Shown here: piece after piece, positions 1 to 13,687 of the stretch | Layout of the letters: every line of letters begins with the position of its first letter | Numbering within the stretch: position 1 is the first letter of the stretch | From: a virus | Lineage: Duplodnaviria > Heunggongvirae > Uroviricota > Caudoviricetes | Length of the DNA: 13,687 nucleotides | Strand: one strand, 5' to 3' | Virus record (IMG/VR): IMGVR_UViG_2526164652_000005 | Notes under the pieces: model-generated | The model's input: only the letters and a program-made list of their open reading frames with translations | What the model was told of the DNA's origin: nothing | The model's database searches: none | Made by a program: the position numbers and the translations under genes

Positions 1-288
1 TCAATGGTTGGCGTCATTATCTTTTTCTCTTTCTGAACGTGAATATTGCGGTGGACGGTTCATCAGCTGTGGGGCAAGACGTTTTGCCACCTGAAGAATA
101 ACCACCACCGCAGCGGGAAGCATGAGCAAAACACCGAGAAAAATCATCAGAATCTGCACTTCTGGCCGAGAAAATGGCTCAGGCAGCGACAGGGAGTCGC
201 TTACCGACAGCAGAGCCACCGCCAGTAGCATCATTCCGATAAATTCCAGTATCAACACGCCTTTAGGCAATTTACCGATCGCGCGCAT
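1..288 (-). CDS. ybjC: small inner-membrane protein YbjC (95 aa), complete; stop codon at 1-3
   Basis: Translation matches remembered E. coli YbjC; hydrophobic two-helix profile; divergent from grxA as in E. coli. Confidence 0.8.
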   Translation of the reverse strand: MRAIGKLPKGVLILEFIGMMLLAVALLSVSDSLSLPEPFSRPEVQILMIFLGVLLMLPAAVVVILQVAKRLAPQLMNRPPQYSRSEREKDNDANH

Positions 289-447
289 ACGCTTCCCTCT
301 GCAAAGTGAGCCTTCAGTCTAAAACTTTTCACTGTATTGTGTTTAACAGTTATAGCTTTTAGCAATTAATGCAACAGGTTAAACCTACTTTCAGCGAATA
401 CATTTTAGCGTGATCATTACAGGCATAAATCTATGAGGAGAGAAATA
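289..447. promoter_or_regulatory. Divergent ybjC / grxA promoter region
   Basis: 159-bp AT-rich spacer between divergent starts; GAGGAG Shine-Dalgarno at 435-440 before the grxA ATG at 448. grxA is a known OxyR target, but I could not confidently delineate the OxyR motif by eye. Confidence 0.45.
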
Positions 448-705
448 ATGCAAACCGTTATTTTTGGTCGTTCGGGTTGCCCTTACTGTGTGCGTGCAAA
501 AGATCTGGCTGAGAAATTGAGCAATGAACGCGATGATTTTCAGTATCAGTATGTAGATATTCGTGCGGAAGGGATCACTAAAGAAGATCTACAACAAAAG
601 GCAGGTAAACCCGTAGAAACCGTGCCGCAGATTTTTGTCGATCAGCAACATATCGGCGGCTATACCGATTTTGCTGCATGGGTGAAAGAAAATCTGGACG
701 TCTGA
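448..705 (+). CDS. grxA: glutaredoxin 1 (85 aa)
   Basis: Near-identical to remembered E. coli GrxA (MQTVIFGRSGCPYCVRAKDL...), CPYC active site. The track ORF begins at an upstream in-frame ATG (433), but the SD at 435-440 supports ATG 448. Confidence 0.93.
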   Translation: MQTVIFGRSGCPYCVRAKDLAEKLSNERDDFQYQYVDIRAEGITKEDLQQKAGKPVETVPQIFVDQQHIGGYTDFAAWVKENLDV

Positions 706-714
706 TCGTCTGAC

Positions 715-747
715 AAGCCCTCGCGTTGAGGGCTTTACTGATTTTTT
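715..747 (+). terminator. Putative intrinsic terminator after grxA
   Basis: Stem aagccctc (715-722) / gagggctt (728-735) with 5-nt loop; T6 run at 742-747, not immediately adjacent to the stem. Confidence 0.4.
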
Positions 748-1112
748 CTGTGCTGTGGTTTAAACAAACTACTGATAAATAAGAAACACAGTGCCCCCAG
801 CGCACACCAGAACACCGCGCTTAGTAACCATGCCAGCTCTTGCCAGAATGAGCGCGTCGGTGAAAAAAACAGCCGCATAATGAGCATTGAACAGGGTGCC
901 GCCAGCATTGCGCCAAATAGAGGTTTCAGGACTTCTCTACGCTGTGAAAAGAAACTGGCAACAGCTCCAGGAAGAATGAAAAACAGCAAGCCGATTTCAG
1001 GATGCCCGGCAGCCCGAAAAGCGCCTTTCATGTGCGTCGCCAGAAAAAGGCACACCACAATGAAGAGGACAAAACAGCAGATTGCCCCCGCCCAACGTTG
1101 TTTATGTTTCAC
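735..1112 (-). CDS. ybjM: inner-membrane protein YbjM (125 aa)
   Basis: Translation matches remembered YbjM; multi-helix hydrophobic profile; conserved position between grxA and ybjL. Confidence 0.8.
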   Translation of the reverse strand: MKHKQRWAGAICCFVLFIVVCLFLATHMKGAFRAAGHPEIGLLFFILPGAVASFFSQRREVLKPLFGAMLAAPCSMLIMRLFFSPTRSFWQELAWLLSAVFWCALGALCFLFISSLFKPQHRKNQ

Positions 1113-1381
1113 TCGTTCCTCCTGACACTGCGTCTATCGAACACATTTTTCGCCAGTGTGGCGTTCAGTAAGATAAAGCCGCTTCGCATTCCATGCTAAT
1201 ATAGGCCAACGAAATTCATATAGCCGTTGATACCTAATGTGATTACACTAGTAAAATATATTGTTACTTTACTATCGTTTAGGTGCGCTGAATGAATCTG
1301 CGCCCTGAATTCTGGTAAAAAACATTATCGTAAATTACCATTTCTTTCAACAGCTTACTAGTAAACAAGAAGTTAGCCTCC

Positions 1382-3067
1382 GTGAATATAAACGTCGCCG
1401 AATTGTTAAATGGGAATTACATTCTGTTATTATTTGTGGTCCTCGCGCTTGGGCTATGTCTCGGAAAGTTACGACTTGGTTCGATCCAACTGGGTAATTC
1501 CATTGGCGTTTTAGTCGTATCGCTGTTATTAGGCCAACAACATTTCAGCATTAACACCGATGCGCTTAATCTTGGCTTTATGCTGTTTATTTTCTGCGTC
1601 GGGGTCGAAGCCGGACCGAACTTTTTTTCCATTTTTTTTCGCGATGGGAAAAATTACCTAATGTTAGCTCTGGTGATGGTTGGCAGTGCGCTGGTGATCG
1701 CCTTAGGGTTAGGTAAGCTGTTTGGCTGGGATATTGGCCTGACGGCCGGTATGTTAGCAGGCTCTATGACGTCGACACCGGTTCTGGTCGGTGCTGGCGA
1801 TACACTGCATCATTCCGGCATGGAAAGCAGGCAGCTCTCACTGGCACTGGATAATCTGAGCCTCGGGTATGCCTTAACCTATTTAATCGGTCTGGTGAGT
1901 TTGATTGTTGGTGCGCGTTACTTGCCGAAATTGCAGCATCAGGACTTACAGACCAGCGCCCAGCAAATCGCCCGCGAACGTGGCCTGGACACTGATGCCA
2001 ACCGTAAGGTTTATTTACCGGTGATCCGCGCCTATCGCGTCGGCCCGGAGCTGGTGGCCTGGACCGACGGCAAAAATCTGCGTGAACTGGGTATTTATCG
2101 ACAAACCGGCTGCTACATTGAACGTATTCGACGTAACGGGATTCTGGCAAATCCAGACGGTGATGCCGTGCTACAAATGGGCGATGAAATAGCGTTGGTA
2201 GGCTATCCCGACGCCCATGCCCGACTCGATCCCAGCTTCCGTAACGGTAAAGAAGTTTTCGATCGTGACCTTCTCGACATGCGTATCGTCACTGAAGAAG
2301 TGGTCGTTAAAAACCATAACGCTGTAGGTAAACGTCTCGCACAACTGAAGTTGACCGATCACGGTTGCTTCCTTAACCGCGTCATTCGTAGCCAGATTGA
2401 GATGCCGATAGATGACAACGTCGTGCTTAACAAAGGTGACGTTTTACAAGTCAGCGGTGATGCCCGTCGCGTAAAAACCATCGCCGATCGCATCGGCTTT
2501 ATCTCGATTCACAGCCAGGTCACTGACCTGCTGGCATTTTGCGCCTTCTTTGTTATTGGGCTGATGATCGGGATGATCACCTTCCAGTTCAGCACATTCA
2601 GTTTCGGCATGGGGAACGCTGCCGGGTTGTTATTCGCCGGAATTATGCTGGGCTTTATGCGTGCTAACCACCCGACCTTCGGTTACATTCCGCAAGGTGC
2701 ATTAAGCATGGTGAAAGAGTTCGGCTTGATGGTGTTTATGGCAGGCGTTGGTCTGAGCGCCGGTAGCGGTATTAATAACGGCCTGGGCGCGATTGGCGGT
2801 CAGATGTTGATTGCCGGATTAATTGTCAGTCTTGTGCCCGTGGTTATCTGTTTCTTGTTCGGTGCTTATGTATTGCGAATGAACCGCGCACTGTTGTTCG
2901 GCGCAATGATGGGCGCACGCACCTGCGCGCCGGCAATGGAGATCATCAGTGATACAGCTCGCAGTAACATCCCTGCGCTGGGCTATGCGGGCACCTACGC
3001 AATCGCCAACGTCCTGCTGACGCTGGCAGGGACAATCATCGTCATGGTATGGCCAGGATTAGGATAA
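1382..3067 (+). CDS. ybjL: putative transporter YbjL (561 aa), AAE-family permease with two central TrkA-C/RCK_C domains; GTG start
   Basis: Full-length match to remembered YbjL; membrane domains flank a soluble central region; synteny with ybjM and grxA. Confidence 0.88.
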
Positions 3068-3179
3068 AACTGAAGTTGCCCTGAAAATGAAATTTTTTTG
3101 CACAACCGCAGAACTTTTCCGCAGGGCATCAGTCTTAATTAGTGCCACTGCTTTTCTTTGATGTCCCCATTTTGTGGAG

Positions 3180-3222
3180 CCCATCAACCCCGCCATTTCG
3201 GTTCAAGGTTGATGGGTTTTTT
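3180..3222 (+). terminator. Putative intrinsic terminator downstream of ybjL
   Basis: 10-bp stem cccatcaacc (3180-3189) / ggttgatggg (3207-3216) followed directly by T6 (3217-3222). Confidence 0.5.
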
Positions 3223-3302
3223 GTTGCCTGAAATTTAAGCTGTTTAAAATCATGATGTTAGAAGCACTGTTTTTTAACGATGGCGACAAAATGGCGGCAG
3301 CG

Positions 3303-3521
3303 TCAAAGAGAGAGCGCCACCTGTCCTGATTTCATTGGATGCGGCTGAACCGGATTTGACTCTTTTGGCGTTGCAATCGAACGAACAAAAGTTTCATGGG
3401 TAACAAAAGTATGGCTGCAGTTAATGTTCTGGCACTGGTTGTAACGCTCTTTGGTCAATGAAGATACCTGAAAACTGCTGCGAGTATGGGCGGCACTTCC
3501 ACACAGTGGGCAAATCATCAT
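3303..3521 (-). CDS. ogr: Ogr/Delta-family zinc-finger late-gene transcriptional activator (72 aa)
   Basis: CPLCG...CQNINC zinc-finger motif and overall similarity to P2 Ogr. GGGAGA SD sits 9 nt upstream of the ATG at 3521; the track ORF starts at an upstream GTG (3554), which I judge less likely. Confidence 0.8.
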   Translation of the reverse strand: MMICPLCGSAAHTRSSFQVSSLTKERYNQCQNINCSHTFVTHETFVRSIATPKESNPVQPHPMKSGQVALSL

Positions 3522-3611
3522 TTTTCGAGTTCTCCCAATTTTTGCTAAATTCACAATAATGATACCGAATTATTCCATTTTGCAAACTTAAAAGTTCTCC
3601 ATTGCGAAGAA

Positions 3612-4712
3612 TCATTCCATTTCGAAATCATCAATCCTCACTTCAAGCTCCAGACTGGTCGTAAAACCATTATCCGGGCTTACGGTATGCGTCAGAGTCG
3701 TAATGGTCCATTCCGCATCATCTATCGGCTGTTTAAAGCCACTGACTTTCACTGGCATTTCCGTGTAGAGATCTGCCCGCCCTTCCGCCAGTTGTAACGA
3801 GAATGACGCAACGCCGCGTTGCAGGCGTTCCCACTGCATTTTCGCCGCTCGTTCGGTGTTGCTCCGGTTGGCATAAGTGCGATTAAGTACCAGCACGTTT
3901 TCATCCGTACCCACCAGGTAATCGCCCTGCTTCGCTTCCGGCTCTTTCTTCTGCTTCTTAGTCCTGCGCTTACGCTTCACCGTGGTGCTTTCTTTCTTCG
4001 CGGGTTCGCGGGTATGCAACCAGCTGGCAATTACGCCCGTGTAGGCTCCGCGATCTGCCAGGGTAAAGCGGTGACTGTCGCCGTCCTTACGTGTGATAGT
4101 GATAACCGGTAGTGGTTTACCGCTGGCGCTTTTACCCTGTCCCTGCCGGATGAATACCAGATTGCCATTTTTCACCGACGCAATAGCACCGTACTGGCGC
4201 GCCAGCCGCATCAGAAAACTGCCGTCACTCTCATTGGTCTGGTCTATATGCTCCACGGGTTTATCCGACAGGTCTTCACCCAATGCCATCTTCAGTTTGT
4301 GCCGCGCAGATATTTCCTTCACGACTTCCCCAACGGTGGTCTTGTGCCACGATTTTTCACGGCGGGTATTCAGCGTTTCACGAAAATCAGCACTTCGCGC
4401 CCGGATAGTCAGGCGGTCCGGTGCGCCAGTGTGTTCAATCTCGTCCACCGTGAATGCCCCTTTCGGGAAAAGCGGCTGCCCCTTCCACCCCAGCGCCAGC
4501 GTAATGACCGCACCACGGCGCGGCAGCACGATTTTTCCGTCGGCGTCGTCCAGCTCCAGATCAAGCTGGTCCGCTTCAAATCCCCGATTGTCCGTCAGCG
4601 TCAGACTCATCAGGCGGTTATCCAGCACAGTAGTGATATCCCTGCCCTCAATACTGATGCTGAATGCAGGAGTTTTGTTGCCTTTGTTAAGCAGTTCAGA
4701 GCTGAAATTCAC
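3612..4712 (-). CDS. D: P2 gpD-family tail protein (366 aa); GTG start overlapping the U stop (GTGA)
   Basis: Similarity to P2 gpD; conserved position between U and ogr; translational coupling to U. Confidence 0.85.
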   Translation of the reverse strand: MNFSSELLNKGNKTPAFSISIEGRDITTVLDNRLMSLTLTDNRGFEADQLDLELDDADGKIVLPRRGAVITLALGWKGQPLFPKGAFTVDEIEHTGAPDRLTIRARSADFRETLNTRREKSWHKTTVGEVVKEISARHKLKMALGEDLSDKPVEHIDQTNESDGSFLMRLARQYGAIASVKNGNLVFIRQGQGKSASGKPLPVITITRKDGDSHRFTLADRGAYTGVIASWLHTREPAKKESTTVKRKRRTKKQKKEPEAKQGDYLVGTDENVLVLNRTYANRSNTERAAKMQWERLQRGVASFSLQLAEGRADLYTEMPVKVSGFKQPIDDAEWTITTLTHTVSPDNGFTTSLELEVRIDDFEME

Positions 4713-5194
4713 GACAGCAGCCCTCCCACCGTTTTACTGATATCGCTTAATGCAGATGTTGCCGTGTCCTGCAGATTATTCAGCTGCGCACTGAGATCAC
4801 CGAACATATCGGACAGGGATTCATCCACCCGTTTGAGCGACAGGGTGAACTCAATCCGGCGCGGCATACCGTCGCGGAAAAACTCCGTTTTAGTCTGATT
4901 CAGTCCCTCAATCACATACATGCCGTAAATCGTGCCGCTGCCTTCAATCAGGGGCCATGCTTTCCCCTGTTCTGCCATCTGCTCAAGTGCCAGCAACGAC
5001 AGCCTGCCGCCTGTTATCTCCGGCATAAGAACACCGGAAAGCGTCAGCATGTCGTTGTCCGGTCCCAGAAACTGCGTGGACGGACGACGATTTACCCGGC
5101 TGTTAGCCGCATGTCGCCAGCTGCGTTGATACTGCAGTTCCTGATACGGCACGGTGCGCAGCATAAACACGTACAATCCCAGCACCATCATCAT
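4709..5194 (-). CDS. U: P2 gpU-family tail protein (161 aa)
   Basis: Similarity to P2 gpU (MMVLGL..., QRSWRH motif); ATGA start/stop overlap with the end of T. Confidence 0.85.
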   Translation of the reverse strand: MMMVLGLYVFMLRTVPYQELQYQRSWRHAANSRVNRRPSTQFLGPDNDMLTLSGVLMPEITGGRLSLLALEQMAEQGKAWPLIEGSGTIYGMYVIEGLNQTKTEFFRDGMPRRIEFTLSLKRVDESLSDMFGDLSAQLNNLQDTATSALSDISKTVGGLLS

Positions 5195-8100
5195 GCGTCG
5201 TATCCCCCCTGATCGCTGTAGTTACTCCTGGCTTTTGCCTTCAACCTGCGTTCACGTTCATCAAGCTGGCGGGCCACCTCCCGCGCAATATCCTGCGCAC
5301 TTTGTCCTGGCTGTGTCTGGATGATGATCTGCGTCGGTGCTTCAATCCGGTAAATGGGCGGCACAGTAGCTGCACGACTCACCATCGCTTCACCGCCTTT
5401 CGCGGGAAGCGCCAAAGGATGCAACGGTGGAAGCTCTGCTGGCGCGGCAGCAACGCCCATCATTCCGGCGACAACGGCAGCCAGTGCAGCTGTATTTCTC
5501 CGGCTGGTCACGTTTGCCGGGCCGTTAACAATTTCCGGCCCGTTTTCACCGACGATGCCAAACTGCCCACGCGGGATATAGCCGCCGCTGTCATACATAC
5601 CCGCAAAGCCATATCCCCATGACGGAAAATCACCCGATGGCATCATCACTTTACCGTCTGCATTCACCGTCGCAGGTTGCTGACTCGTCACGCTTTCCGG
5701 TAGTTTTGCCTTTGCGGCCTCTTTACTGACAATGCCGAGTTTCTCCAGCAACCAGGAAACGCCGGATTTCAGGGAGTCCAGCGGATGCATGACCATATTC
5801 AGCCCTTCCGCCAGTGCCTCCCCGAATCGCCGCCCCATTGCCGCTGCACTCTGCAGTTCGGCAGAGGTCGACTTAACGGGCGTCAGCAGATCAGTAAACC
5901 AGCCCCACAGCGCCTGTACTTTGTCGCCAATCCACTGAAACACGGGCTTAAGCGGTTCGAATGCAGCACTGATGGGACCTGCCGCCGCTTTGAATCCTTC
6001 CACCACGCCACCGAGAAATGCGGTGATGGGTTGCCAGTATTTCCAGACAACCAGCGCCACGCCCGCCAGTGCAGTAACCACAAGACCTATCGGACTGAGC
6101 AGAGCACCTAACAGACCAGATACGGCATACAGGGCAACGCGCAGCATCGCCAGCGGACCGGATGCCAGCACACGCAGCACCGCGCCTGCGGCAGCCAGTC
6201 CACCGCGTAGTGCTGCCAGTGGATTCATAAACATCACAGCAACCGCACGTAACCCGGATAATCCAGACCGCAAAAGTGCAACCGGCGCACCTGCTACCGT
6301 TTTCAGGACATTTCCCGTCAGTGATGCCGTGCGGCGCAAAGACGACAACGGCGCAGTAAGTAAACCTGCGGCGTTGCCCGATGAAGCAAGCCCGCGTCGC
6401 AGCAGTGCCTGTGGTGCGCCAGCCAGGACAACGCACTGCTGGTTCGAGTTACTGCTGCCGTAACGGAAGGTAACATTTTGATACCCAGCACAGAGAATCC
6501 CAGACGGATCACTGCCAGCGGCCCCAGCACTGCAGCCAGCGCCACCGCTAAGGTGCCGAGGCCCACGGTAACGGCAGCCACCACAGCGGCTACTTTCATC
6601 AGTGTGCCTGTCAGTTCCGGGTTAGCTTCCACCCAGCGACGCAACGCCCCTGTGACGCTTTTCACCGTGAACAGAATATCCATCAGCGGCTGGCGCAGCG
6701 TTTCGCCCAGGCTGCTGAAGGTGTTCTGCGCTCCGGTTTTGACCAGCAACCACTGAGCAGAAAGTGAGTCCTTGTTGATGTCGGATTCTTTCTGCATGGA
6801 ACCGAGCGCATCATTGCCCGTTGTCAGTTTTAGCTGGCGCTGCAGTTCCGGAAGGTTGTTTGCCAGTTTCGCTGCGTCATCGCCAAACTCTTTACCAAAC
6901 AACATGGTCATGGCAGACAGGCGCTTATCCTGCGGCAGTGCGTTCACCTTCTCCAGCACGCGCTGGATGGTTCCCATCGCATCCTTCGTCATCTGCTTTT
7001 CAATCACTTCAGGATTGAGTTTCAGCAGATTCATCCCTTCAAAGAAACTCTTGCTCTGCATGGTGGCAATGGACAATTCACGCACCATCGCGTTTGCTGC
7101 ACTGGCTGCAACCTCTGGCGCAGCGCCCAGTGTCAGGAAGGTGGAACCCAGCGCCGCCGCTTTACGATAATCCAGACGATCAGCCACACCGCCCAGGCGT
7201 TGCATGACATCAATGATGTCTACCCCTTTCGACATGGCGTTATCATCCAGATAGTTCAGCGCATCACCGAGCTGTTCAATATTGCGGGTAGGGATTTTGT
7301 AGAGCTGGGCGATTTTCCCCAGACTTTCTGACAGTTCATCCGCTGGCAGCTCAAAGGCTGTTGCCGCCTTTGCTGCCGTACTGGCGAAGGCCAGCAGGTC
7401 ACGTTTCTGGTCCTCCCAGCTGTCGTCAGGGTTTGCAACGTTCATACGCGCACCACCTTCAACCAGTGCAGCGAAGTCCACCGCACCGTTTTCCATCGGC
7501 AACTGTTCGCTGGCAGCTTTGATGGCATCCTGCATTTCATAAAAACGTGCAGTGCGGTTGCCATTATCGTCACGCAGACCATTGACCTGCTTTGTCACAC
7601 CTTTCATGGCATCTTCCATGCTGGTATAGCTTTTTACTGCCGCCATCACTGGCGTCCCCATTGCCAGCCCTGCCGCCGTGGTGGTGGCTCCGGCTCCTGC
7701 GATGCGATCGCGCACCTCCAGCGAACGGGCATAACTGGCACGCGCTGCATTCATCCTGCGCTGAGCTTCCCCCAGTCGCTTCAGCCGCGCCTCCTGTTTC
7801 GACAGTTCCTGGTTATAACGTGATGTTTCACGGGCTAAACGGGCAGTTGCTCCCGCATCATCTTTCGCAGAAATTCCCGCCCGGTACAGTTCTGCACGCA
7901 CAAGCGCCGTTTGCTTCTGCAAATATTTTTGTTGTTCTTCCAGGCGTTGGACTGCCAGCGTTTGCCGACCTAAAGCCACAAGGTGCCGTTGTGATGGTTG
8001 TTCCATCGCTTCCAGCTCAGAACTAAGCAAATTTGCCTTCTGTCTGGCATAGTTCAGCCTGTCGCCTAACTTTTTGTTATCGGCCTGCAGCTTGCGAAAT

Positions 8101-8264
8101 TTTTCCAGGCTGTTACCCGCCTGATTGAGTTGCTTTAATGCGTCACGGGAGTTTCTGATTGCGCCAGCCAGCTCTTTCGAACTGGCCTGTGCAGCACGGA
8201 ATGGGCGGGTGAGTTTGTCAACCGCATTAAGAATGACCTGCAGGCGCAGGTTATTATCACTCAT
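5191..8264 (-). pseudogene. T: Tail tape-measure protein gpT, reading frame disrupted: N-terminal ORF 6318-8264 and C-terminal ORF 5191-6348 in a different frame
   Basis: N-terminal ORF begins MSDNNLRLQ..., coiled-coil rich, P2 gpT-like. Its last ~35 codons are low-complexity out-of-frame-looking sequence. The other frame carries proline-terminated 21-22 aa repeats that continue to the U overlap and is open upstream to a stop at 6622-6624. Together these imply a -1 register change around 6380-6500. Confidence 0.7.
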
Positions 8265-8693
8265 CGTTAGCCCCGCTTCTCTGAATCGCTTTATACCGCC
8301 ATTCCAGCACTTCGGTCAGCGGCATAACGTCAGTAACGGATGGCGGCCAGTGAAAGATGGTGGCGATATCAGCCACCAGATCGTCAACCGTCAGGCTGTC
8401 GGTAAACCGGCAAGCACCGACTTCTTCAACAAAAAAGTGACAACCTCAACCGACATAGCGGTGAGATCTGCCGAGTCCATCTCTGCAATTTCTTGTGCGG
8501 TCAGTGCCGGACTGGAAATGCAGGGGATCACGGTCATCATCGCGTTCACATCCATATCCATAATGGCCTGCAGGCGTATACCGCGCAGCGCACCGGACTG
8601 CGGTTTACGCAGCACAATTTCGGTAATTTCTGTTTTACCGCGCATGATGGGGGTATCCAGTTGAATGGTCTTTTCAGTCTGCTTATCGCTCAT
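8257..8693 (-). CDS. E': E+E' fusion product via programmed -1 ribosomal frameshift (about 145 aa)
   Basis: The -1 frame is open from the slippery site to a TGA at 8257-8259, ending ...RSGANDE and overlapping the T start codon. Geometry matches the P2 E/E' arrangement (analogous to lambda G/GT). Confidence 0.55.
8391..8693 (-). CDS. E: P2 gpE-family tail assembly chaperone (100 aa)
   Basis: Position immediately upstream of T and similarity to P2 gpE; contains the slippery heptamer near its 3' end. Confidence 0.8.
   Translation of the reverse strand: MSDKQTEKTIQLDTPIMRGKTEITEIVLRKPQSGALRGIRLQAIMDMDVNAMMTVIPCISSPALTAQEIAEMDSADLTAMSVEVVTFLLKKSVLAGLPTA
8430..8436 (-). other. Slippery heptamer T_TTT_TTG for the E/E' -1 frameshift
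   Basis: Minus-strand codons ACT TTT TTG in the E frame (plus-strand caaaaaa at 8430-8436). Confidence 0.6.
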
Positions 8694-8747
8694 TTTATTG
8701 TCCTGTAAATTGGGTTCTGGCGCGGTATCCCGCGCCGTTCAGATACA

Positions 8748-9263
8748 TCAGAGGCCGAGGGCGTTGCGGTGCGCTTCCATCAGGTCCACACCGTCCACAA
8801 TTTCCACCATGTTGATAAGGTCCACTTCATAGAGCACCTCACCATTGATGGTCAGCTTCGCGTAGCTGTTGGTACTGGTCACTTTGGTGGTGTTGCTTTC
8901 GCCCGTCTTCCACTCGCCGGAATCCACTTCTTTGTGACGTCCTCGCACCACAAGCTCCACAGCCTGCACTTCCCCGGTATCGTCACGCTGGATAGAGCCA
9001 GTAAAGCGCAGCTGGATGCCATCCACAGTGGCTTTGCCCATCTGCTTAAACAGCAGCAGTTCAGTACCACCAATGGAAAATTCTGTGTCCAGAGCACTGT
9101 CATCAAGCCCCAGATCCACATCCACCGCCCCCGGCATTCCGCCGCCGCGATACTTCTCATATTTGCGGGTGAATTTCGGCAGCGTCAGCGACTCAACGAT
9201 CCCCTGCCAGTTGTTCCCGTCGTTAAACAGGTTCAGGTGTTTTAATTTGCGTGGTAAAGCCAT
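8748..9263 (-). CDS. FII: P2 gpFII-family major tail tube protein (171 aa)
   Basis: MALPRKLKHLNLFNDGNN... matches the P2 FII N-terminus; located between FI and E. Confidence 0.88.
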   Translation of the reverse strand: MALPRKLKHLNLFNDGNNWQGIVESLTLPKFTRKYEKYRGGGMPGAVDVDLGLDDSALDTEFSIGGTELLLFKQMGKATVDGIQLRFTGSIQRDDTGEVQAVELVVRGRHKEVDSGEWKTGESNTTKVTSTNSYAKLTINGEVLYEVDLINMVEIVDGVDLMEAHRNALGL

Positions 9264-9272
9264 GTTGTCCCC

Positions 9273-10445
9273 TTACGCGCTGACCTGGCTGGCGAAATTC
9301 ACCAGGTACTGATCGGTGATGCGCTGACGCAGCATCAGGTTTTCAAGTGGCGGCACTGGCGTGTAGTCGTAGTCGATAGTGAGTTTCCCGGCTTTCAGAG
9401 TGTCTTTGTCGTTCACCGACTCGTCCAGCCAGCAATCACCACCAATGAGATACCCCTGACTGACCAGGCTGCGCATTTTGGCGCGGATACCTTCGATAAT
9501 GTCGCGGGCCAGCGACGGATTCAGCGGTTTGTCCACTGCCCACATGTGCGCTTCTGCCATCGTGTCCATCAGTACCTGCGCCGTGCGGGTGTAGTTTTCG
9601 AAGGCAAAGAGCGGGTCATCGCTCAGACAGCGGGAACCCCAGAAGCGGAAACCGTCTTTGCGGATAAGCGTGGTAACGTCGTTCTGGTTAAGCAGACCTG
9701 CATCGGTTGCCGGGTCCTGCAGATCCCAGAACACATCAGCAGAAATTCCGGTGACACCGTTCACGCCCACGTTGGACAGGCTTTTGTGCCATCCGGTCTG
9801 CTCATCAATTTTGGCGCGCAGACCGAGCGCACGGGCGGTGGCATATGCCGTTGCTTCGGCATTCAGCACCGTGTCCCAGCCCGTAAAGTCAGGCCAGATC
9901 AGCATCCCTTCGCGCTGGCTGAAGTTTTCACGGTAAGTGATCGCCTCCTGTACCGTCTTGCAGCCATACGCTGACAGGTAAGCAAACCCACGCAGGCTTT
10001 GCGCCACGCTCAGCAACTCAGTCGCAACGGCTTTGTTATCGTGGCCTGGCACGCCGAGAATGCGCGGTTTAACGCCGAGCTGTGACTGGGCAGATAACAG
10101 GGCTTTCATACCTGTTTTTTTACCTTCAGCAGTCACTGCGCCGATGATATTGGTCGTGGTTTCGTCTTCCGTTTCACCCTGCGGCACACGCACAACAACG
10201 GTCACGGGTTTTGCCTGGTCAGCGATGGCATCCAGCGAACGGGCCAGAGTACCGGACTCACCCGCTTTACCGCTGGCAGTCAGCACATCAGTGATCAGCA
10301 CGGGTTTATTAAGAGGAAACATTTTTGCATCGGCATCATCGCCCGTGCAGACCATACCCACAATGGCGGTGCTCACCGTGGTAATGGATCGGGTGCCTTC
10401 GTTGACTTCAACAACGCGCACCCCGTGGTGGTAATCCTGAGCCAT
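9273..10445 (-). CDS. FI: P2 gpFI-family contractile tail sheath protein (390 aa)
   Basis: Strong similarity to P2 FI along its length (DYHHGV..., [13 protein letters not shown]..., [14 protein letters not shown]...). AGGAGG SD lies 9 nt upstream of the ATG. Confidence 0.9.
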
Positions 10446-10521
10446 AGTGGCGAACCTCCTGATTGGATTAGGCTTCGCCCTATGTTGAAGTGATTGTGCC
10501 TGACAAACAGCTAAGCGCAGT

Positions 10522-10539
10522 TGTACCGTTATTCATACA
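10522..10539 (-). promoter_or_regulatory. Candidate Ogr-dependent late promoter element (TGT-N12-ACA dyad) upstream of FI
   Basis: tgtaccgttattcataca has the TGT-N12-ACA dyad characteristic of P2/P4 late promoters and lies about 85 bp upstream of the FI start. Confidence 0.4.
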
Positions 10540-10587
10540 AAATGACGGTATTTGTCTGCTTGCAGGGATAATCAACATAATGCTGAT

Positions 10588-11160
10588 TCAGGGGGATTCA
10601 TTGCTCTTATTTGCCGGAAATTTTCTATAAATTGTGGAAACACCTACATCAAAAATCAGTGCAATACGCTGTCTTGATTCTCCGGCCTCGAGTAAACGTC
10701 CAATCTGTGCCCACTGTTCGGTGATCAACTTAGGACGGCGTCCACCTACTCTGCCTTTGGCGCGAGCTGCAGCCAGCCCCGCCTTGGTACGTTCAACTAT
10801 CAGTTCGCGCTCCATTTCAGCCAGGGCCCCCATGACATGAAAAAAGAAACGGCCCATTGGGGTACTGGTATCAATACTGTCAGTCAGGCTTCGGAAATTC
10901 ACGCCACGCTGGCGCAGCTCTTCTATCAGCGTAACGAGATGCCGCATACTGCGCCCCAACCTGTCCAGCTTCCAGACAACCAGAGTGTCACCTGCCGATA
11001 ATGTCCTGAGCAGTTTTTTCAGTCCCGGTCTGTCGGACTTAGTGCCACTGATTTTGTCCTCAAAAATCCGCTCACATCCCGCGCAGTTCAGTGCATTACG
11101 TTGCAAATCGGTGTTCTGGTCATTTGTTGACACGCGTACATAGCCAATAAGCATGATCAA
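10588..11160 (-). CDS. Serine-recombinase DNA invertase, Hin/Gin/Pin/Cin family (190 aa)
   Basis: Very high similarity to Hin/Pin: catalytic-serine motif GYVRVSTNDQ, conserved core, C-terminal helix-turn-helix. True start may be the second in-frame ATG. Confidence 0.9.
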   Translation of the reverse strand: MIMLIGYVRVSTNDQNTDLQRNALNCAGCERIFEDKISGTKSDRPGLKKLLRTLSAGDTLVVWKLDRLGRSMRHLVTLIEELRQRGVNFRSLTDSIDTSTPMGRFFFHVMGALAEMERELIVERTKAGLAAARAKGRVGGRRPKLITEQWAQIGRLLEAGESRQRIALIFDVGVSTIYRKFPANKSNESP

Positions 11161-11172
11161 TCCCCTGAATAA

Positions 11173-11472
11173 AAACCGGGGATGATGCCAGTTAGCCGTT
11201 ATCTCTGCATTTTCATAAACGTTGGTTTGGGAGAAGCGGCTAAAAGAAATGTAGGGACAGGGGCGAATCAGATACCTGATATGGGTAGTTTTATGCTTTC
11301 TGCTTCAGTTCCTGGATATCAAAAATTGCCATCCGGTTTAATTATTCAATGGGGGCCAATTGATGTTCCGCTGACGTCTCAGGACACAGTAACCTATTTT
11401 CCGATTGCATTTCCGAATAGATGTCTGCGGGTATTTGCGACTCAGGATTACACTCCCGGCAGTGCAAATGTT
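11173..11472 (+). pseudogene. Truncated variable tail-fibre C-terminal segment (alternative Sv'-type cassette), cut by IS1
   Basis: Reading frame open from 11173, passes through the crossover site and runs into the IS1 left end at 11472/11473; the last 8 codons and stop of the tracked ORF are IS1 sequence. Tail-fibre assignment is by context and a weak remembered resemblance ([14 protein letters not shown]). Confidence 0.4.
11210..11235. other. Candidate Hin-family crossover site (hix/gix/pix-like 26-bp imperfect palindrome)
   Basis: ttttcataaacg-tt-ggtttgggagaa; reverse complement ttctcccaaaccaacgtttatgaaaa resembles hixL TTCTTGAAAACCAAGGTTTTTGATAA. Lies between the invertase gene and the divergent tail-fibre fragment, inside the latter's reading frame. 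Confidence 0.4.
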
Positions 11473-11495
11473 GGTAATGCTGCCAACTTACTGAT
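11473..11495. repeat. IS1 left terminal inverted repeat
   Basis: ggtaatgctgccaacttactgat; matches the reverse complement of the right end with few mismatches. Confidence 0.85.
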
Positions 11496-11527
11496 TTAGT
11501 GTATGATGGTGATTTTAAGGTGCTTGC

Positions 11528-11803
11528 GTGGCTTCCATTTCCATCAGATGTCCTTCCTGCTCCGCTACTGAAGGCGTGGTGCGTAACGGCAAAAGCACTG
11601 CCGGACATCAGCGCTATCTCTGCTCTCATTGCCGTAAAACATGGCAACTACAGTTCACTTACACCGCCTCTCAGCCCGGTACGCACCAGAAAATCATTGA
11701 TATGGCCATGAATGGCGTCGGATGTCGCGCCAGTGCACGCATTATGGGCGTTGGCCTCAACACGGTTTTACGTCACTTAAAAAACTCAGGCCGCAGTCGG
11801 TAA
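11528..11803 (+). CDS. insA: IS1 InsA (91 aa)
   Basis: Matches remembered IS1 InsA ([23 protein letters not shown]...). Confidence 0.95.
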
Positions 11804-12225
11804 CCTCGCGCATACAACCGGGCAGTGATGTGATTGTCTGCGCTGAAATGGACGAACATTGGGGCTACGTCGGTGCTAAATCACGTCAGCGCTGGCTGTT
11901 TTACGCGTATGACAGGATACGGAGGACGGTTGTGGCGCACGTCTTCGGTGAACGCACTCTGGCCACACTGGAGCGTCTTCTGAGCCTGCTGTCGGCCTTT
12001 GAGGTCGTGGTATGGATGACGGATGGCTGGCCGCTGTATGAATCACGCCTGAAGGGAAAGCTGCACGTTATCAGCAAGCGTTACACTCAGCGCATTGAGC
12101 GACATAATCTGAATCTGAGACAACATCTGGCAAGGCTGGGACGGAAGTCACTGTCGTTCTCAAAATCGGTGGAGCTGCATGACAAGGTCATCGGGCATTA
12201 TCTGAACATAAAACACTATCAGTAA
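11722..12225 (+). CDS. insB: IS1 insB' frame; expressed as the InsAB' transposase by -1 frameshift at A6C (11779-11785)
   Basis: Matches remembered IS1 InsB; the ttaaaaaac motif lies in the insA/insB overlap. Confidence 0.9.
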
Positions 12226-12240
12226 GTTGGAGTCATTACC
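12218..12240. repeat. IS1 right terminal inverted repeat
   Basis: atcagtaagttggagtcattacc. Confidence 0.85.
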
Positions 12241-12242
12241 GT

Positions 12243-12551
12243 GTTCGTGAACTCGGTGATGCTAGTGTTCCTTTTTCGTTCGATGTTCATGCGATGATTT
12301 ATAGTGATGATGCACCATCATTAGAAAATCATCTGCATAAAGTCTTCAACGAAAAACAGGTCAATAAAATTAACTCACGAAAAGAGTTTTTCAACGTAAA
12401 TATTAAAGAAATTAAGTCTGTTATTGAAGATATGAACATCAACGCACAATGGACAATGTTTGCGGAAGCGAAAGAATATAGAGAGTCACTGGCGATTGAG
12501 CAAGAGCGCAAAGCAGCAACTTCCGCCAACGATGAACTGCATGTTGCTTAG
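12243..12551 (+). pseudogene. 3' fragment of a T5orf172-domain (GIY-YIG-like) protein gene, truncated at its 5' side by IS1
   Basis: Frame is open directly from the IS1 right end (...RVRELGDASVPFSFDVHAMIYSDDAPSLENHLHKVFNEKQVNKINSRKEFFNV...); this resembles the C-terminal T5orf172 motif. No start codon of its own until 12294. Confidence 0.5.
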
Positions 12552-12610
12552 CAATGTATGTTTCATAGTAATCACACATTGATTACTGGTTGTATATACA
12601 GTTAAATTTA

Positions 12611-12634
12611 GCCCTCTGATATGAGGGCTTTTTT
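12611..12634 (+). terminator. Intrinsic terminator-like hairpin immediately upstream of int
   Basis: Stem gccctc (12611-12616) / gagggc (12623-12628), 6-nt loop, then T6 (12629-12634). Confidence 0.5.
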
Positions 12635-13687
12635 ATGGCAGTACGAAAACTCACCACAGGAAAATGGCTTTGCGAATGTTACCCCGCCGGACGTAGTGGA
12701 CGTCGTGTGCGTAAACAATTCGCCACCAAAGGCGAAGCTCTGGCTTTTGAGCGTCACACGATGGAAGAAACCGAAGCAAAGCCCTGGCTGGGTGAATCAG
12801 TGGATCGTCGAACACTGAAAGACGTGGTTGAACTATGGTTCAAACTACATGGTAAATCTCTGACAGCTGGGCAGCATGTCTATGACAAATTGCTGTTGAT
12901 GGTTGACGCTCTGGGCAATCCTCTTGCAACCGATCTCACCTCTAAAATGTTTGCCCACTATCGAGATAAACGCCTGACAGGCGAGATCTACTTCAGCGAG
13001 AAATGGAAGAAAGGAGCAAGCCCGGTCACCATTAACCTGGAGCAAAGCTATCTAAGTAGTATTTTTAGCGAACTATCCCGTCTGGGCGAATGGTCGTATC
13101 CGAACCCACTGGAGAACATGCGAAAATTCACCATCGCAGAAAAAGAGATGGCATGGCTTACCCATGAGCAGATTGTTGAATTGCTGGCTGATTGCAAACG
13201 TCAGGACCCAATTCTGGCACTGGTAGTTAAGATATGCTTAAGCACAGGCGCACGCTGGCGTGAAGCCGTAAATCTTACTCGCTCACAGGTGACCAAATAC
13301 CGAATTACCTTTGTCAGAACGAAGGGGAAGAAAAACAGAAGCATCCCTATCAGTAAAGAGCTTTACGAAGAGATCATGGCGCTTGATGGGTTCAATTTCT
13401 TCACAGACTGCTATTTTCAATTTTTATCCGTGATGGAAAAAACGTCTATCGTGCTCCCTCGCGGTCAACTCACACACGTTCTGCGCCATACGTTTGCGGC
13501 GCACTTCATGATGTCGGGTGGAAACATTCTGGCCTTACAAAAAATTCTCGGACACCACGATATAAAAATGACTATGCGTTACGCACATCTGGCACCGGAT
13601 CATCTGGAAACGGCGCTCCGTTTCAATCCTCTGGCAACGCTGCCAAGTGGCGACAAAGTGGCGGCAGCGGTTGGCATTACCCCGTAA
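12635..13687 (+). CDS. int: P2-family tyrosine integrase (350 aa), complete; TAA at the window end
   Basis: Similarity to P2 Int (MAIKKLDDGRYEV... versus MAVRKLTTGKWLCE...); conserved catalytic region LSTGARW, RHTFAAHFM, LGHHDIKMTMRYAHL. Confidence 0.88.
   Translation: MAVRKLTTGKWLCECYPAGRSGRRVRKQFATKGEALAFERHTMEETEAKPWLGESVDRRTLKDVVELWFKLHGKSLTAGQHVYDKLLLMVDALGNPLATDLTSKMFAHYRDKRLTGEIYFSEKWKKGASPVTINLEQSYLSSIFSELSRLGEWSYPNPLENMRKFTIAEKEMAWLTHEQIVELLADCKRQDPILALVVKICLSTGARWREAVNLTRSQVTKYRITFVRTKGKKNRSIPISKELYEEIMALDGFNFFTDCYFQFLSVMEKTSIVLPRGQLTHVLRHTFAAHFMMSGGNILALQKILGHHDIKMTMRYAHLAPDHLETALRFNPLATLPSGDKVAAAVGITP

Follow-up and report, generated by a model that had tools for sequence, protein, structure and literature searches.

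A decayed P2-family prophage at the 3' end of rybB in Shigella flexneri, with an IS1-associated deletion and a frameshifted tape-measure gene

This study concerns a stretch of 13,687 nucleotides, IMG/VR virus record IMGVR_UViG_2526164652_000005 (the window, by which we mean the whole of this stretch), and what we read as the remnant of a P2-family temperate phage inserted in the small RNA gene rybB. AFGX01000012.1, a contig of the Shigella flexneri K-272 assembly GCA_000213715.2, matches all 13,687 bases of the window with 100% identity and is referred to here as the source contig, and the chromosome of S. flexneri 89-141 (CP026803.1) differs from the window by 1 base (99.99% identity). The leftmost 3.2 kb of the window are host DNA with the genes ybjC, grxA, ybjM and ybjL, as annotated in Escherichia coli relatives. 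The last base of the window belongs to the stop codon of the integrase gene (int), so that the left attachment site (attL) lies outside it; in the source contig int leads into attL and then into the host genes rcdA (TetR-type), ybjJ (MFS) and ybjI (HAD). Between ybjL and rcdA there remain, beside rybB, the right attachment site (attR), ogr, D, U, a pseudogene of T, E/E', FII, FI, a DNA invertase gene with one crossover site, a copy of IS1, the stub of a defence gene, int and attL.

Tail operon, integrase and attachment sites at rybB

Gene calls were made with Pfam, and protein identities to phages P2 and 186 were obtained by tblastn. As further references we used E. coli L73, FDAARGOS_1248 and MB20, each of which carries a complete prophage between ybjL and rcdA with the P2 gene order from ogr to int: ogr, tail, fibre, baseplate, lysis, head, terminase, cargo, replication, cII, cI, a DUF4041 gene and int. 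In the window the surviving late genes lie on the minus strand as FI-FII-E/E'-T-U-D, with the gene for an Ogr/Delta zinc-finger activator after them, as is characteristic of the P2 family. The first of them is the sheath gene FI (9273-10445, 390 amino acids), which has three sheath Pfam domains and whose product is 99.2% identical to that of L73, 68% to P2 FI and 69% to 186 J; it is followed by the tube gene FII (8748-9263, 171 amino acids; Phage_tube, 201.7 bits), identical to that of L73 (100%). The tail assembly chaperone genes E (8391-8693) and E' (-1 frame, to 8257) together span 8257-8693 (Phage_TAC_7), and the open reading frame downstream of E matches Phage_P2_GpE. The slippery heptamer TTTTTTG lies at 8436-8430 on the minus strand with the -1 frame open into the start of T, and the same heptamer stands at the annotated P2 frameshift site, so that the E+E' frameshift arrangement of the P2 family is present here as well. 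The region of the tape-measure gene T (5191-8264) matches PhageMin_Tail and is a pseudogene, as described below. Next come the gpU homologue (4709-5194, 161 amino acids; Phage_P2_GpU, 150 bits; 99% identity with L73) and the gpD homologue, a tail/baseplate hub protein (3612-4712, 366 amino acids; Phage_GPD; 98% identity with the L73 copy and 54% with D of both P2 and 186), and the series closes with an intact late-gene activator gene of the ogr/B type (3303-3521, 72 amino acids; Ogr_Delta, 77.6 bits), whose product is 100% identical to that of the L73 prophage, 55% to P2 Ogr and 54% to 186 B.

Every late gene shows 29-69% protein identity to P2 and 186. In comparison with the intact prophages, ogr, D, U, E/E', FII, FI, the invertase gene and int all have full-length frames that are 91-100% identical. 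A sequence-only reading of this DNA had assigned ogr, D, U, T, E/E', FII, FI, an invertase and an integrase, and Pfam agrees with each of these placements; the contiguous late operon it described is retained in gene order, with the correction that T has been disrupted by a 4-nt deletion.

Two candidate control signals accompany these genes. A pattern search returned the dyad TGTATGAATAACGGTACA (TGT-N12-ACA) at 10522-10539, upstream of FI, the centre of which is 85 nt from the FI ATG as compared to 83 nt for the annotated activator site of P2 pF. An Ogr-dependent late-promoter dyad of this form is expected about 55 nt upstream of the start site of transcription, and by its distance to the FI ATG TGTATGAATAACGGTACA would qualify as one; the 6 other TGT-N12-ACA dyads in the window stand at no late-promoter position. 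The intact sheath and tube genes and the late-promoter dyad of the sequence-only reading are all found again here. For ogr, a consensus scan predicted a sigma-70-like promoter at 3559-3586 on the minus strand (TTTGCA-16-TATCAT), with the same -10 hexamer as the annotated pB of 186.

At the other end of the element, an intact tyrosine integrase gene (12635-13687, plus strand, 350 amino acids; Int_N and Phage_integrase) is transcribed towards attL. Its product is 99.7% identical to the Int of L73, 54% to that of 186 and 35% to that of P2. The consensus scan also predicted a terminator-like hairpin with a T-run directly 5' of the int start (12610-12629, plus strand). We note that the hairpin ends 5 nt before the ATG and that its T-run continues straight into it (12610-12637, TTTTTATGG); judged by this arrangement, expression of int would need read-through or an unrecognised promoter.

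Because of the protein identities (29-69% for the tail genes; 54% to 186 and 35% to P2 for Int), we place the parent phage by sequence among the Peduoviridae, as a member that is neither P2 nor 186 itself. The integrase, and the regulatory layout of the intact relatives, resemble phage 186 more closely than P2.

The site at which this phage entered the chromosome can be given to the base. Rfam recognises the host gene for the small RNA RybB (RF00110) at 3147-3225 on the plus strand, with a score of 105.3 bits against a gathering score of 40 and a match to model positions 1-79 of 79. In the annotation of MG1655 rybB lies between rcdA and ybjL, the same position as in the window, and the sequence of the window copy is identical to that of K-12 through the U-tract. 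The hairpin at 3178-3225, with its loop of 17 nt, is the rybB terminator, and should be annotated as rybB rather than as the terminator of ybjL for which the sequence-only reading had taken it (at 3222). Nor does the element abut the 3' end of ybjL, as had been supposed: it lies 145 bp downstream of that gene, and the insertion is in the final 14 bp of rybB, at its 3' end.

These 14 bp are the attachment core ATGGGTTTTTTGTT. The attR copy occupies 3212-3225, at the end of the rybB terminator stem and U-tract, and the second copy, attL, is found in the source contig at the window equivalent of 13762-13775, 75 bp past the window end. ATGGGTTTTTTGTT is the sole identity common to the empty K-12 site, attR of the window and attL of both the source contig and E. 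coli L73, and the empty K-12 site has one copy of it only. The element is thus bounded by direct repeats of its core with a tyrosine integrase gene at the attL end, as is typical of the P2 family, and we conclude that Int-mediated site-specific recombination into the end of rybB regenerated an unchanged rybB at attR. The first phage base is 3226 and the junction 3225/3226, which falls within the interval 3222-3303 predicted from the letters alone. The block had been drawn at 3068-13687; a prophage is indeed present there, starting at 3212 (with the core) or 3226 (without it), and 3068-3211 are host DNA. It had also been stated that no P2 att core was recognisable, and the core does differ from that of P2; what had escaped notice was the core itself, which emerged on comparison with attL and the empty K-12 site.

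At attL, a hairpin with a U-tract follows closely on int; it is contributed by the phage, its 3' half is the core, and the phage attP therefore overlaps a terminator of the phage itself, as in the annotation of 186. Just inside attR, two motifs containing CGCCAT, TGCCGCCATTT and TGTCGCCATCG, were read in tandem from the sequence (3278-3299, minus strand). They resemble the 186 arm-site consensus YAYCGCCAYTY and may be arm-type sites for Int in the P arm.

The IS1 junction and other lesions

A complete IS1 of 768 bp lies at 11473-12240 on the plus strand (Zn_ribbon_InsA, HTH_Tnp_IS1 and DDE_Tnp_IS1). It has all of the features by which IS1 is identified, namely insA (11528-11803), insB' (11722-12225), the A6C frameshift motif AAAAAAC (11778-11784) and the terminal inverted repeats GGTAATGCTGCCAACTTACTGAT and GGTAATGACTCCAACTTACTGAT, and it is 90.7% identical to the annotated IS1A of E. 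coli MB20. No 9-bp target duplication was found around it: the left flank reads GCAAATGTT and the right flank GTGTTCGTG. Because these 9-bp flanks differ, the IS1 marks a deletion rather than a simple insertion, for which a duplication of 8-9 bp would be expected. A tail-fibre cassette fragment lies to its left and the 3' end of a defence gene to its right, and neither these two features nor the IS1 had been reported in the sequence-only reading.

The fragment on the left (11182-11472, plus strand) is part of an alternative, gp53-like C-terminal tail-fibre cassette of an invertible segment. It matches Gp53-like_C at positions 1-46 of 84 only, its 3' end is cut by IS1, and its E. coli homologues match as far as window position 11474 and then diverge. 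The stub on the right (12243-12551, plus strand) is all that remains of an anti-phage gene of the PD-Lambda-1 / DUF4041-T5orf172 kind, namely its final 102 codons, with a match to PADLOC PD-Lambda-1 at positions 387-481 of 491 and a partial match to the Pfam families MUG113/T5orf172. E. coli L73 has, between cI and int, a gene for 558 amino acids to whose 3' end the stub is 100% identical, and the 5' 82% of the gene has here been deleted; the window has no full-length PD-Lambda-1 gene (about 490-560 amino acids, with DUF4041 and T5orf172/MUG113 domains).

What is missing can be measured against the intact relative. Between the att cores the element is 10,550 bp long as compared to 35,016 bp in E. 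coli L73, or one third of the size, and about 25.2 kb of phage DNA are gone. Window positions 1-11283 align with positions 2655-13941 of the L73 locus (L003), and positions 12240-13687 with 39360-40807, both on the same strand. Since both IS1 flanks are collinear and same-strand with the intact prophage, a deletion is favoured, and inversion or relocation of the missing modules was rejected. Among 5426 complete E. coli genomes, a collection that excludes Shigella, none has either of the IS1 junctions; in 482 of these genomes at least 80% of the window is found in one place, and complete prophages of this lineage are common in E. coli at the same chromosomal site.

The lesion itself is plain from this alignment, and we infer that about 25 kb were lost in one piece in association with IS1. 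Such a loss would have taken with it the rest of the invertible fibre segment, the fibre genes H and G, the baseplate genes I-J-W-V, and the tail completion and lysis genes, together with the head and terminase genes, cos, the replication genes, cII, apl, cI and 82% of the PD-Lambda-1 gene. There are two possible routes: intramolecular transposition of IS1, which would leave one IS1 with an adjacent deletion, or recombination between two direct IS1 copies, and the sequence fits both. In agreement with what the sequence-only reading had said of head, terminase, baseplate, lysis and replication genes in the window, neither the window nor the source contig has genes for the capsid (N, O), the terminase (P, M), the portal (Q), the baseplate (V, W, J, I), lysis or A-type replication. 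Since the intact relatives at the same site do have them, the element is the remnant of a P2-family member and not a functional member.

The second lesion came to light on base-by-base comparison with E. coli FDAARGOS_1248, in which T is one open reading frame of 1025 codons. In the window, 4 nt are deleted at 6417/6418, corresponding to the loss of one unit of a GCCA tandem run, and the frame shifts after codon 616 (of 1025) to reach a stop at codon 649, with the remaining C-terminal part out of frame. At least three NCBI assemblies, as well as several sequencing runs, encode the same truncated product of 648 amino acids, and the truncation is for this reason a trait of the lineage and not an assembly error in one genome. 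It would represent a separate slippage deletion, independent of that at IS1.

The invertase gene has been left with one crossover site only. The gene itself (10588-11154, minus strand) is intact and encodes a serine DNA invertase of the Hin/Gin/Cin type of 188 amino acids (Resolvase, 180.7 bits, and HTH_7), the relatives of which are annotated in RefSeq as 'recombinase family protein'. One 26-bp crossover site, TTTCATAAACGTTGGTTTGGGAGAAG, remains at 11211-11236. In the relatives it is one of an inverted pair: E. coli L73 (L003) and FDAARGOS_1248 (L001) have a second copy in inverted orientation (21/26 matches), located in the fibre gene at a distance of about 1.6-1.9 kb, and no second site was found in the window. 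Of the invertase and two inverted 26-bp sites that make up an invertible tail-fibre switch, one site is therefore lacking. The site was defined from the inverted pair of the relatives; the 'Mu-like inversion crossover site' of 186 was tried as a template and rejected, with 9/26 matches.

Further lesions were observed in and around the element. A contig of S. flexneri K-227 (L006 7113-8992) and the run SRR059822 (L011 187-1746) have two extra single-base indels that interrupt the invertase and sheath genes and may reflect either genuine additional decay or errors of sequencing in homopolymers. In K-272, K-227 and 89-141 alike, the host gene rimK, close to the element, consists of two separate open reading frames (19031-19933 of L005, the source contig), and an IS4-family element is located past ybjI, in the position of E. 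coli ybjH (L005 364-1710); both are further gene decay of the Shigella type around the locus. Among the E. coli relatives, nfsA has an internal stop in FDAARGOS_1248 (L001 11295-12017), and MB20 carries an IS1A between nfsA and ybjC (L002 8064-8761), as a result of which whole-window searches gave 88% coverage in two pieces.

A defective prophage and the alternatives

We read the block as a decayed, rybB-integrated temperate phage of the P2 family (Peduoviridae), with a tail module about 50-70% identical in protein to P2 and 186, a 186-like integrase, an IS1-associated deletion and a frameshift in T. We put the probability of this reading at roughly 93%, and nothing that we found contradicts it. 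That the element is a defective P2-family remnant which cannot form particles alone, as had been proposed from the letters alone, is borne out by the module losses and the frameshift in T. Neither a particle nor a tailocin is possible, because the tape measure, baseplate, fibres, head, cos, replication and lysis genes have been lost; and excision is not expected because an excisionase of the Apl/Cox type is gone, although Int and both att sites survive. The element should thus be unable to replicate, package, lyse, build a tail or excise, and would be inert cargo. Its residual activity, if any, would on the evidence of the surviving signals be limited to the transcription of ogr and of the Ogr-dependent FI operon.

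It is from this residual activity that the best-surviving alternative arises, namely that the remnant is not inert. Loss of cI might have made ogr expression constitutive and with it that of the FI operon, which could trans-activate the late genes of incoming P2-family phages or P4-type satellites, or send antisense transcripts into rybB and alter RybB levels. There are points in favour of derepression: the homologous B promoter of 186 is directly repressed by CI according to the 186 annotation, the promoter-like site in the window has the same -10 hexamer as 186 pB, and cI is deleted here. Against these stands the fact that no CI operator was identified. We did observe, upstream of and over the promoter-like site of ogr (3575-3620, minus strand), three direct repeats of the form (A/C)AATGGA(A/G) and two GAAT-N-ATTC palindromes (3567-3575 and 3609-3617); neither the palindromes nor the AATGGA repeats were found in the cI-apl intergenic region of the intact relative. 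Since no operator motif is shared with the cI-apl region, CI control of ogr is argued by analogy with 186 only.

For antisense transcription into rybB, the point in favour is that the minus strand between the ogr stop and rybB has no detected intrinsic terminator: a consensus scan of both strands of 3000-3700 returned none, a weak negative given that the scan missed the rybB terminator with its 17-nt loop, and RNAfold gave only a weak hairpin, lacking a U-tract, downstream of ogr. This same crudeness of the scan, the rules of which do not admit a loop as long as that of the real rybB terminator, counts against the argument. We also observe that ogr and the FI operon are transcribed convergently towards rybB, the terminator of which doubles as the phage attachment core. 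On balance we consider it unlikely that the remnant is active in any of these ways. In its fullest form, the proposal would be that unrepressed ogr constitutively yields Ogr, sheath, tube, U and D together with antisense RNA across RybB, so that a dead prophage tunes a host stress regulon or trans-activates P2-family phages or P4-type satellites; judged from the sequence, this is speculative and more doubtful still. Were it true, the target would be RybB, the small RNA of the sigma-E envelope-stress response.

Alternatively, the surviving genes might constitute a domesticated contractile-tail device, an R-type tailocin or similar, with sheath, tube, D and U under Ogr control and kept for the benefit of the host. 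FI, FII, E/E', U, D and ogr have remained intact, with sequences very close to those of functional relatives, and the late-promoter dyad and the ogr promoter-like site are present, all of which would suit such a device. It would, however, have to work with no genes for the baseplate (V, W, J, I), the tail fibres, tail completion (R, S, X) or lysis and with a frameshifted tape measure, which is needed for the assembly of tube and sheath, and the full set of sheath, tube, tape-measure, baseplate, fibre and lysis genes that an R-type tailocin has without head genes is not found here. Moreover, the near-identity to intact prophages and the presence of IS1 suggest recent decay rather than long-term maintenance, and we regard domestication as very improbable.

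The weakest alternative, that of an intact P2-family prophage merely truncated by the window with its missing modules past base 13687, was prompted by the window ending at the int stop codon with no attL visible inside, and it is refuted, with next to no probability left to it: int is the terminal gene at attL in P2-family prophages, IS1 lies precisely where the missing genes would be expected, between the fibre cassette and int, and in the 100% identical source contig it is attL, rcdA, ybjJ and ybjI that follow int. The truncation is accordingly real, and the phage genes beyond the window that the sequence-only reading had named as the sign of an intact prophage are not there.

With the decayed-prophage reading, the proper annotation of the block is that of a Peduoviridae prophage, integrated in rybB and defective, in which T is a pseudogene and IS1 marks the scar of a deletion. 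It provides a clean, datable case of prophage erosion driven by an insertion sequence in S. flexneri, for which attR and attL, the precise deletion joint and an intact relative of nearly the same sequence are all available, and in it a PD-Lambda-1 defence gene carried by the phage has been lost. Both IS1 junctions can serve as lineage markers common to K-272, K-227 and 89-141, as can the 4-nt deletion in T. We note that all of the components belong to well-described categories, that is, a known prophage lineage, a known hotspot and the decay by insertion sequences typical of Shigella, so that the case carries little weight beyond annotation.

Comparison with known phages and prophages

The closest known elements are the E. 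coli rybB Peduoviridae prophages of defence hotspot #29, reported from 109 genomes and called Felsduovirus (PMC10121019), and the Klebsiella pneumoniae prophage Kpn38RybB (PMC4048246). These have the same target, the 3' end of rybB between ybjL and rcdA, and the same gene order, and rybB is thus already known as an integration site for such phages. These prophages show 96-99.6% nucleotide identity over the surviving tail module and have the same int and the same PD-Lambda-1/DUF4041 cargo beside it; as compared to them, the present copy has lost about 25 kb in the IS1-associated deletion and has a frameshifted T. We also observed about 96% DNA identity between the tail module at window positions 3337-11285 and a group of phage records (OK490418, OK490395 and others) that bear the names Klebsiella phage Kp48xx and 4LV2017. 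A tail cassette of almost the same sequence is in circulation among the prophages of both Klebsiella and E. coli/Shigella, and a prophage in rybB is known from Klebsiella as well.

Phage 186 (Eganvirus) offers the nearest parallel among the classical phages. Its tail operon J-I-H-G-F-D-B corresponds to FI-FII-E-T-U-D-ogr, and it likewise has a late activator gene with its own sigma-70 promoter beside attP (that of the window being predicted). The 54% identity of Int, the similar CGCCAT arm-type motifs, the cI/apl/cII/fil layout shared with the intact relatives, the overlap of attP with the terminator of the lysogenic operon and the integration into the 3' end of an RNA gene are further points in common. 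The target of 186 is, however, tRNA-Ile (ileY) and not rybB, its tail proteins are 29-69% identical to those of the window, it has no invertase or invertible fibre segment beyond a relic crossover site, and it has no PD-Lambda-1 gene.

With P2 (Peduovirus) the element shares the FI-FII-E/E'-T-U-D-ogr synteny, the TTTTTTG site of E/E', a TGT-N12-ACA dyad at about the same distance from FI, and a slot for non-essential cargo between the fibre genes and FI, which in P2 holds Z/fun in place of the invertase of this phage. It differs from P2 in protein identity (31-68%; Int, 35%), in its att core and, to judge from the relatives, in its immunity region, which is of the 186 type and not of the C/cox type of P2.

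The erosion of prophages by insertion sequences is familiar in Shigella, and cryptic P2 remnants are known, for instance the ogrK-yegZ relic of E. coli K-12. Like relics of the ogrK-yegZ type, the element described here is reduced to its attR-proximal end, with ogr, D and their neighbours, and insertion sequences appear as the agents of erosion. In contrast to such relics it is larger, with seven intact tail and regulatory genes as well as int, and it has kept both of its att sites.

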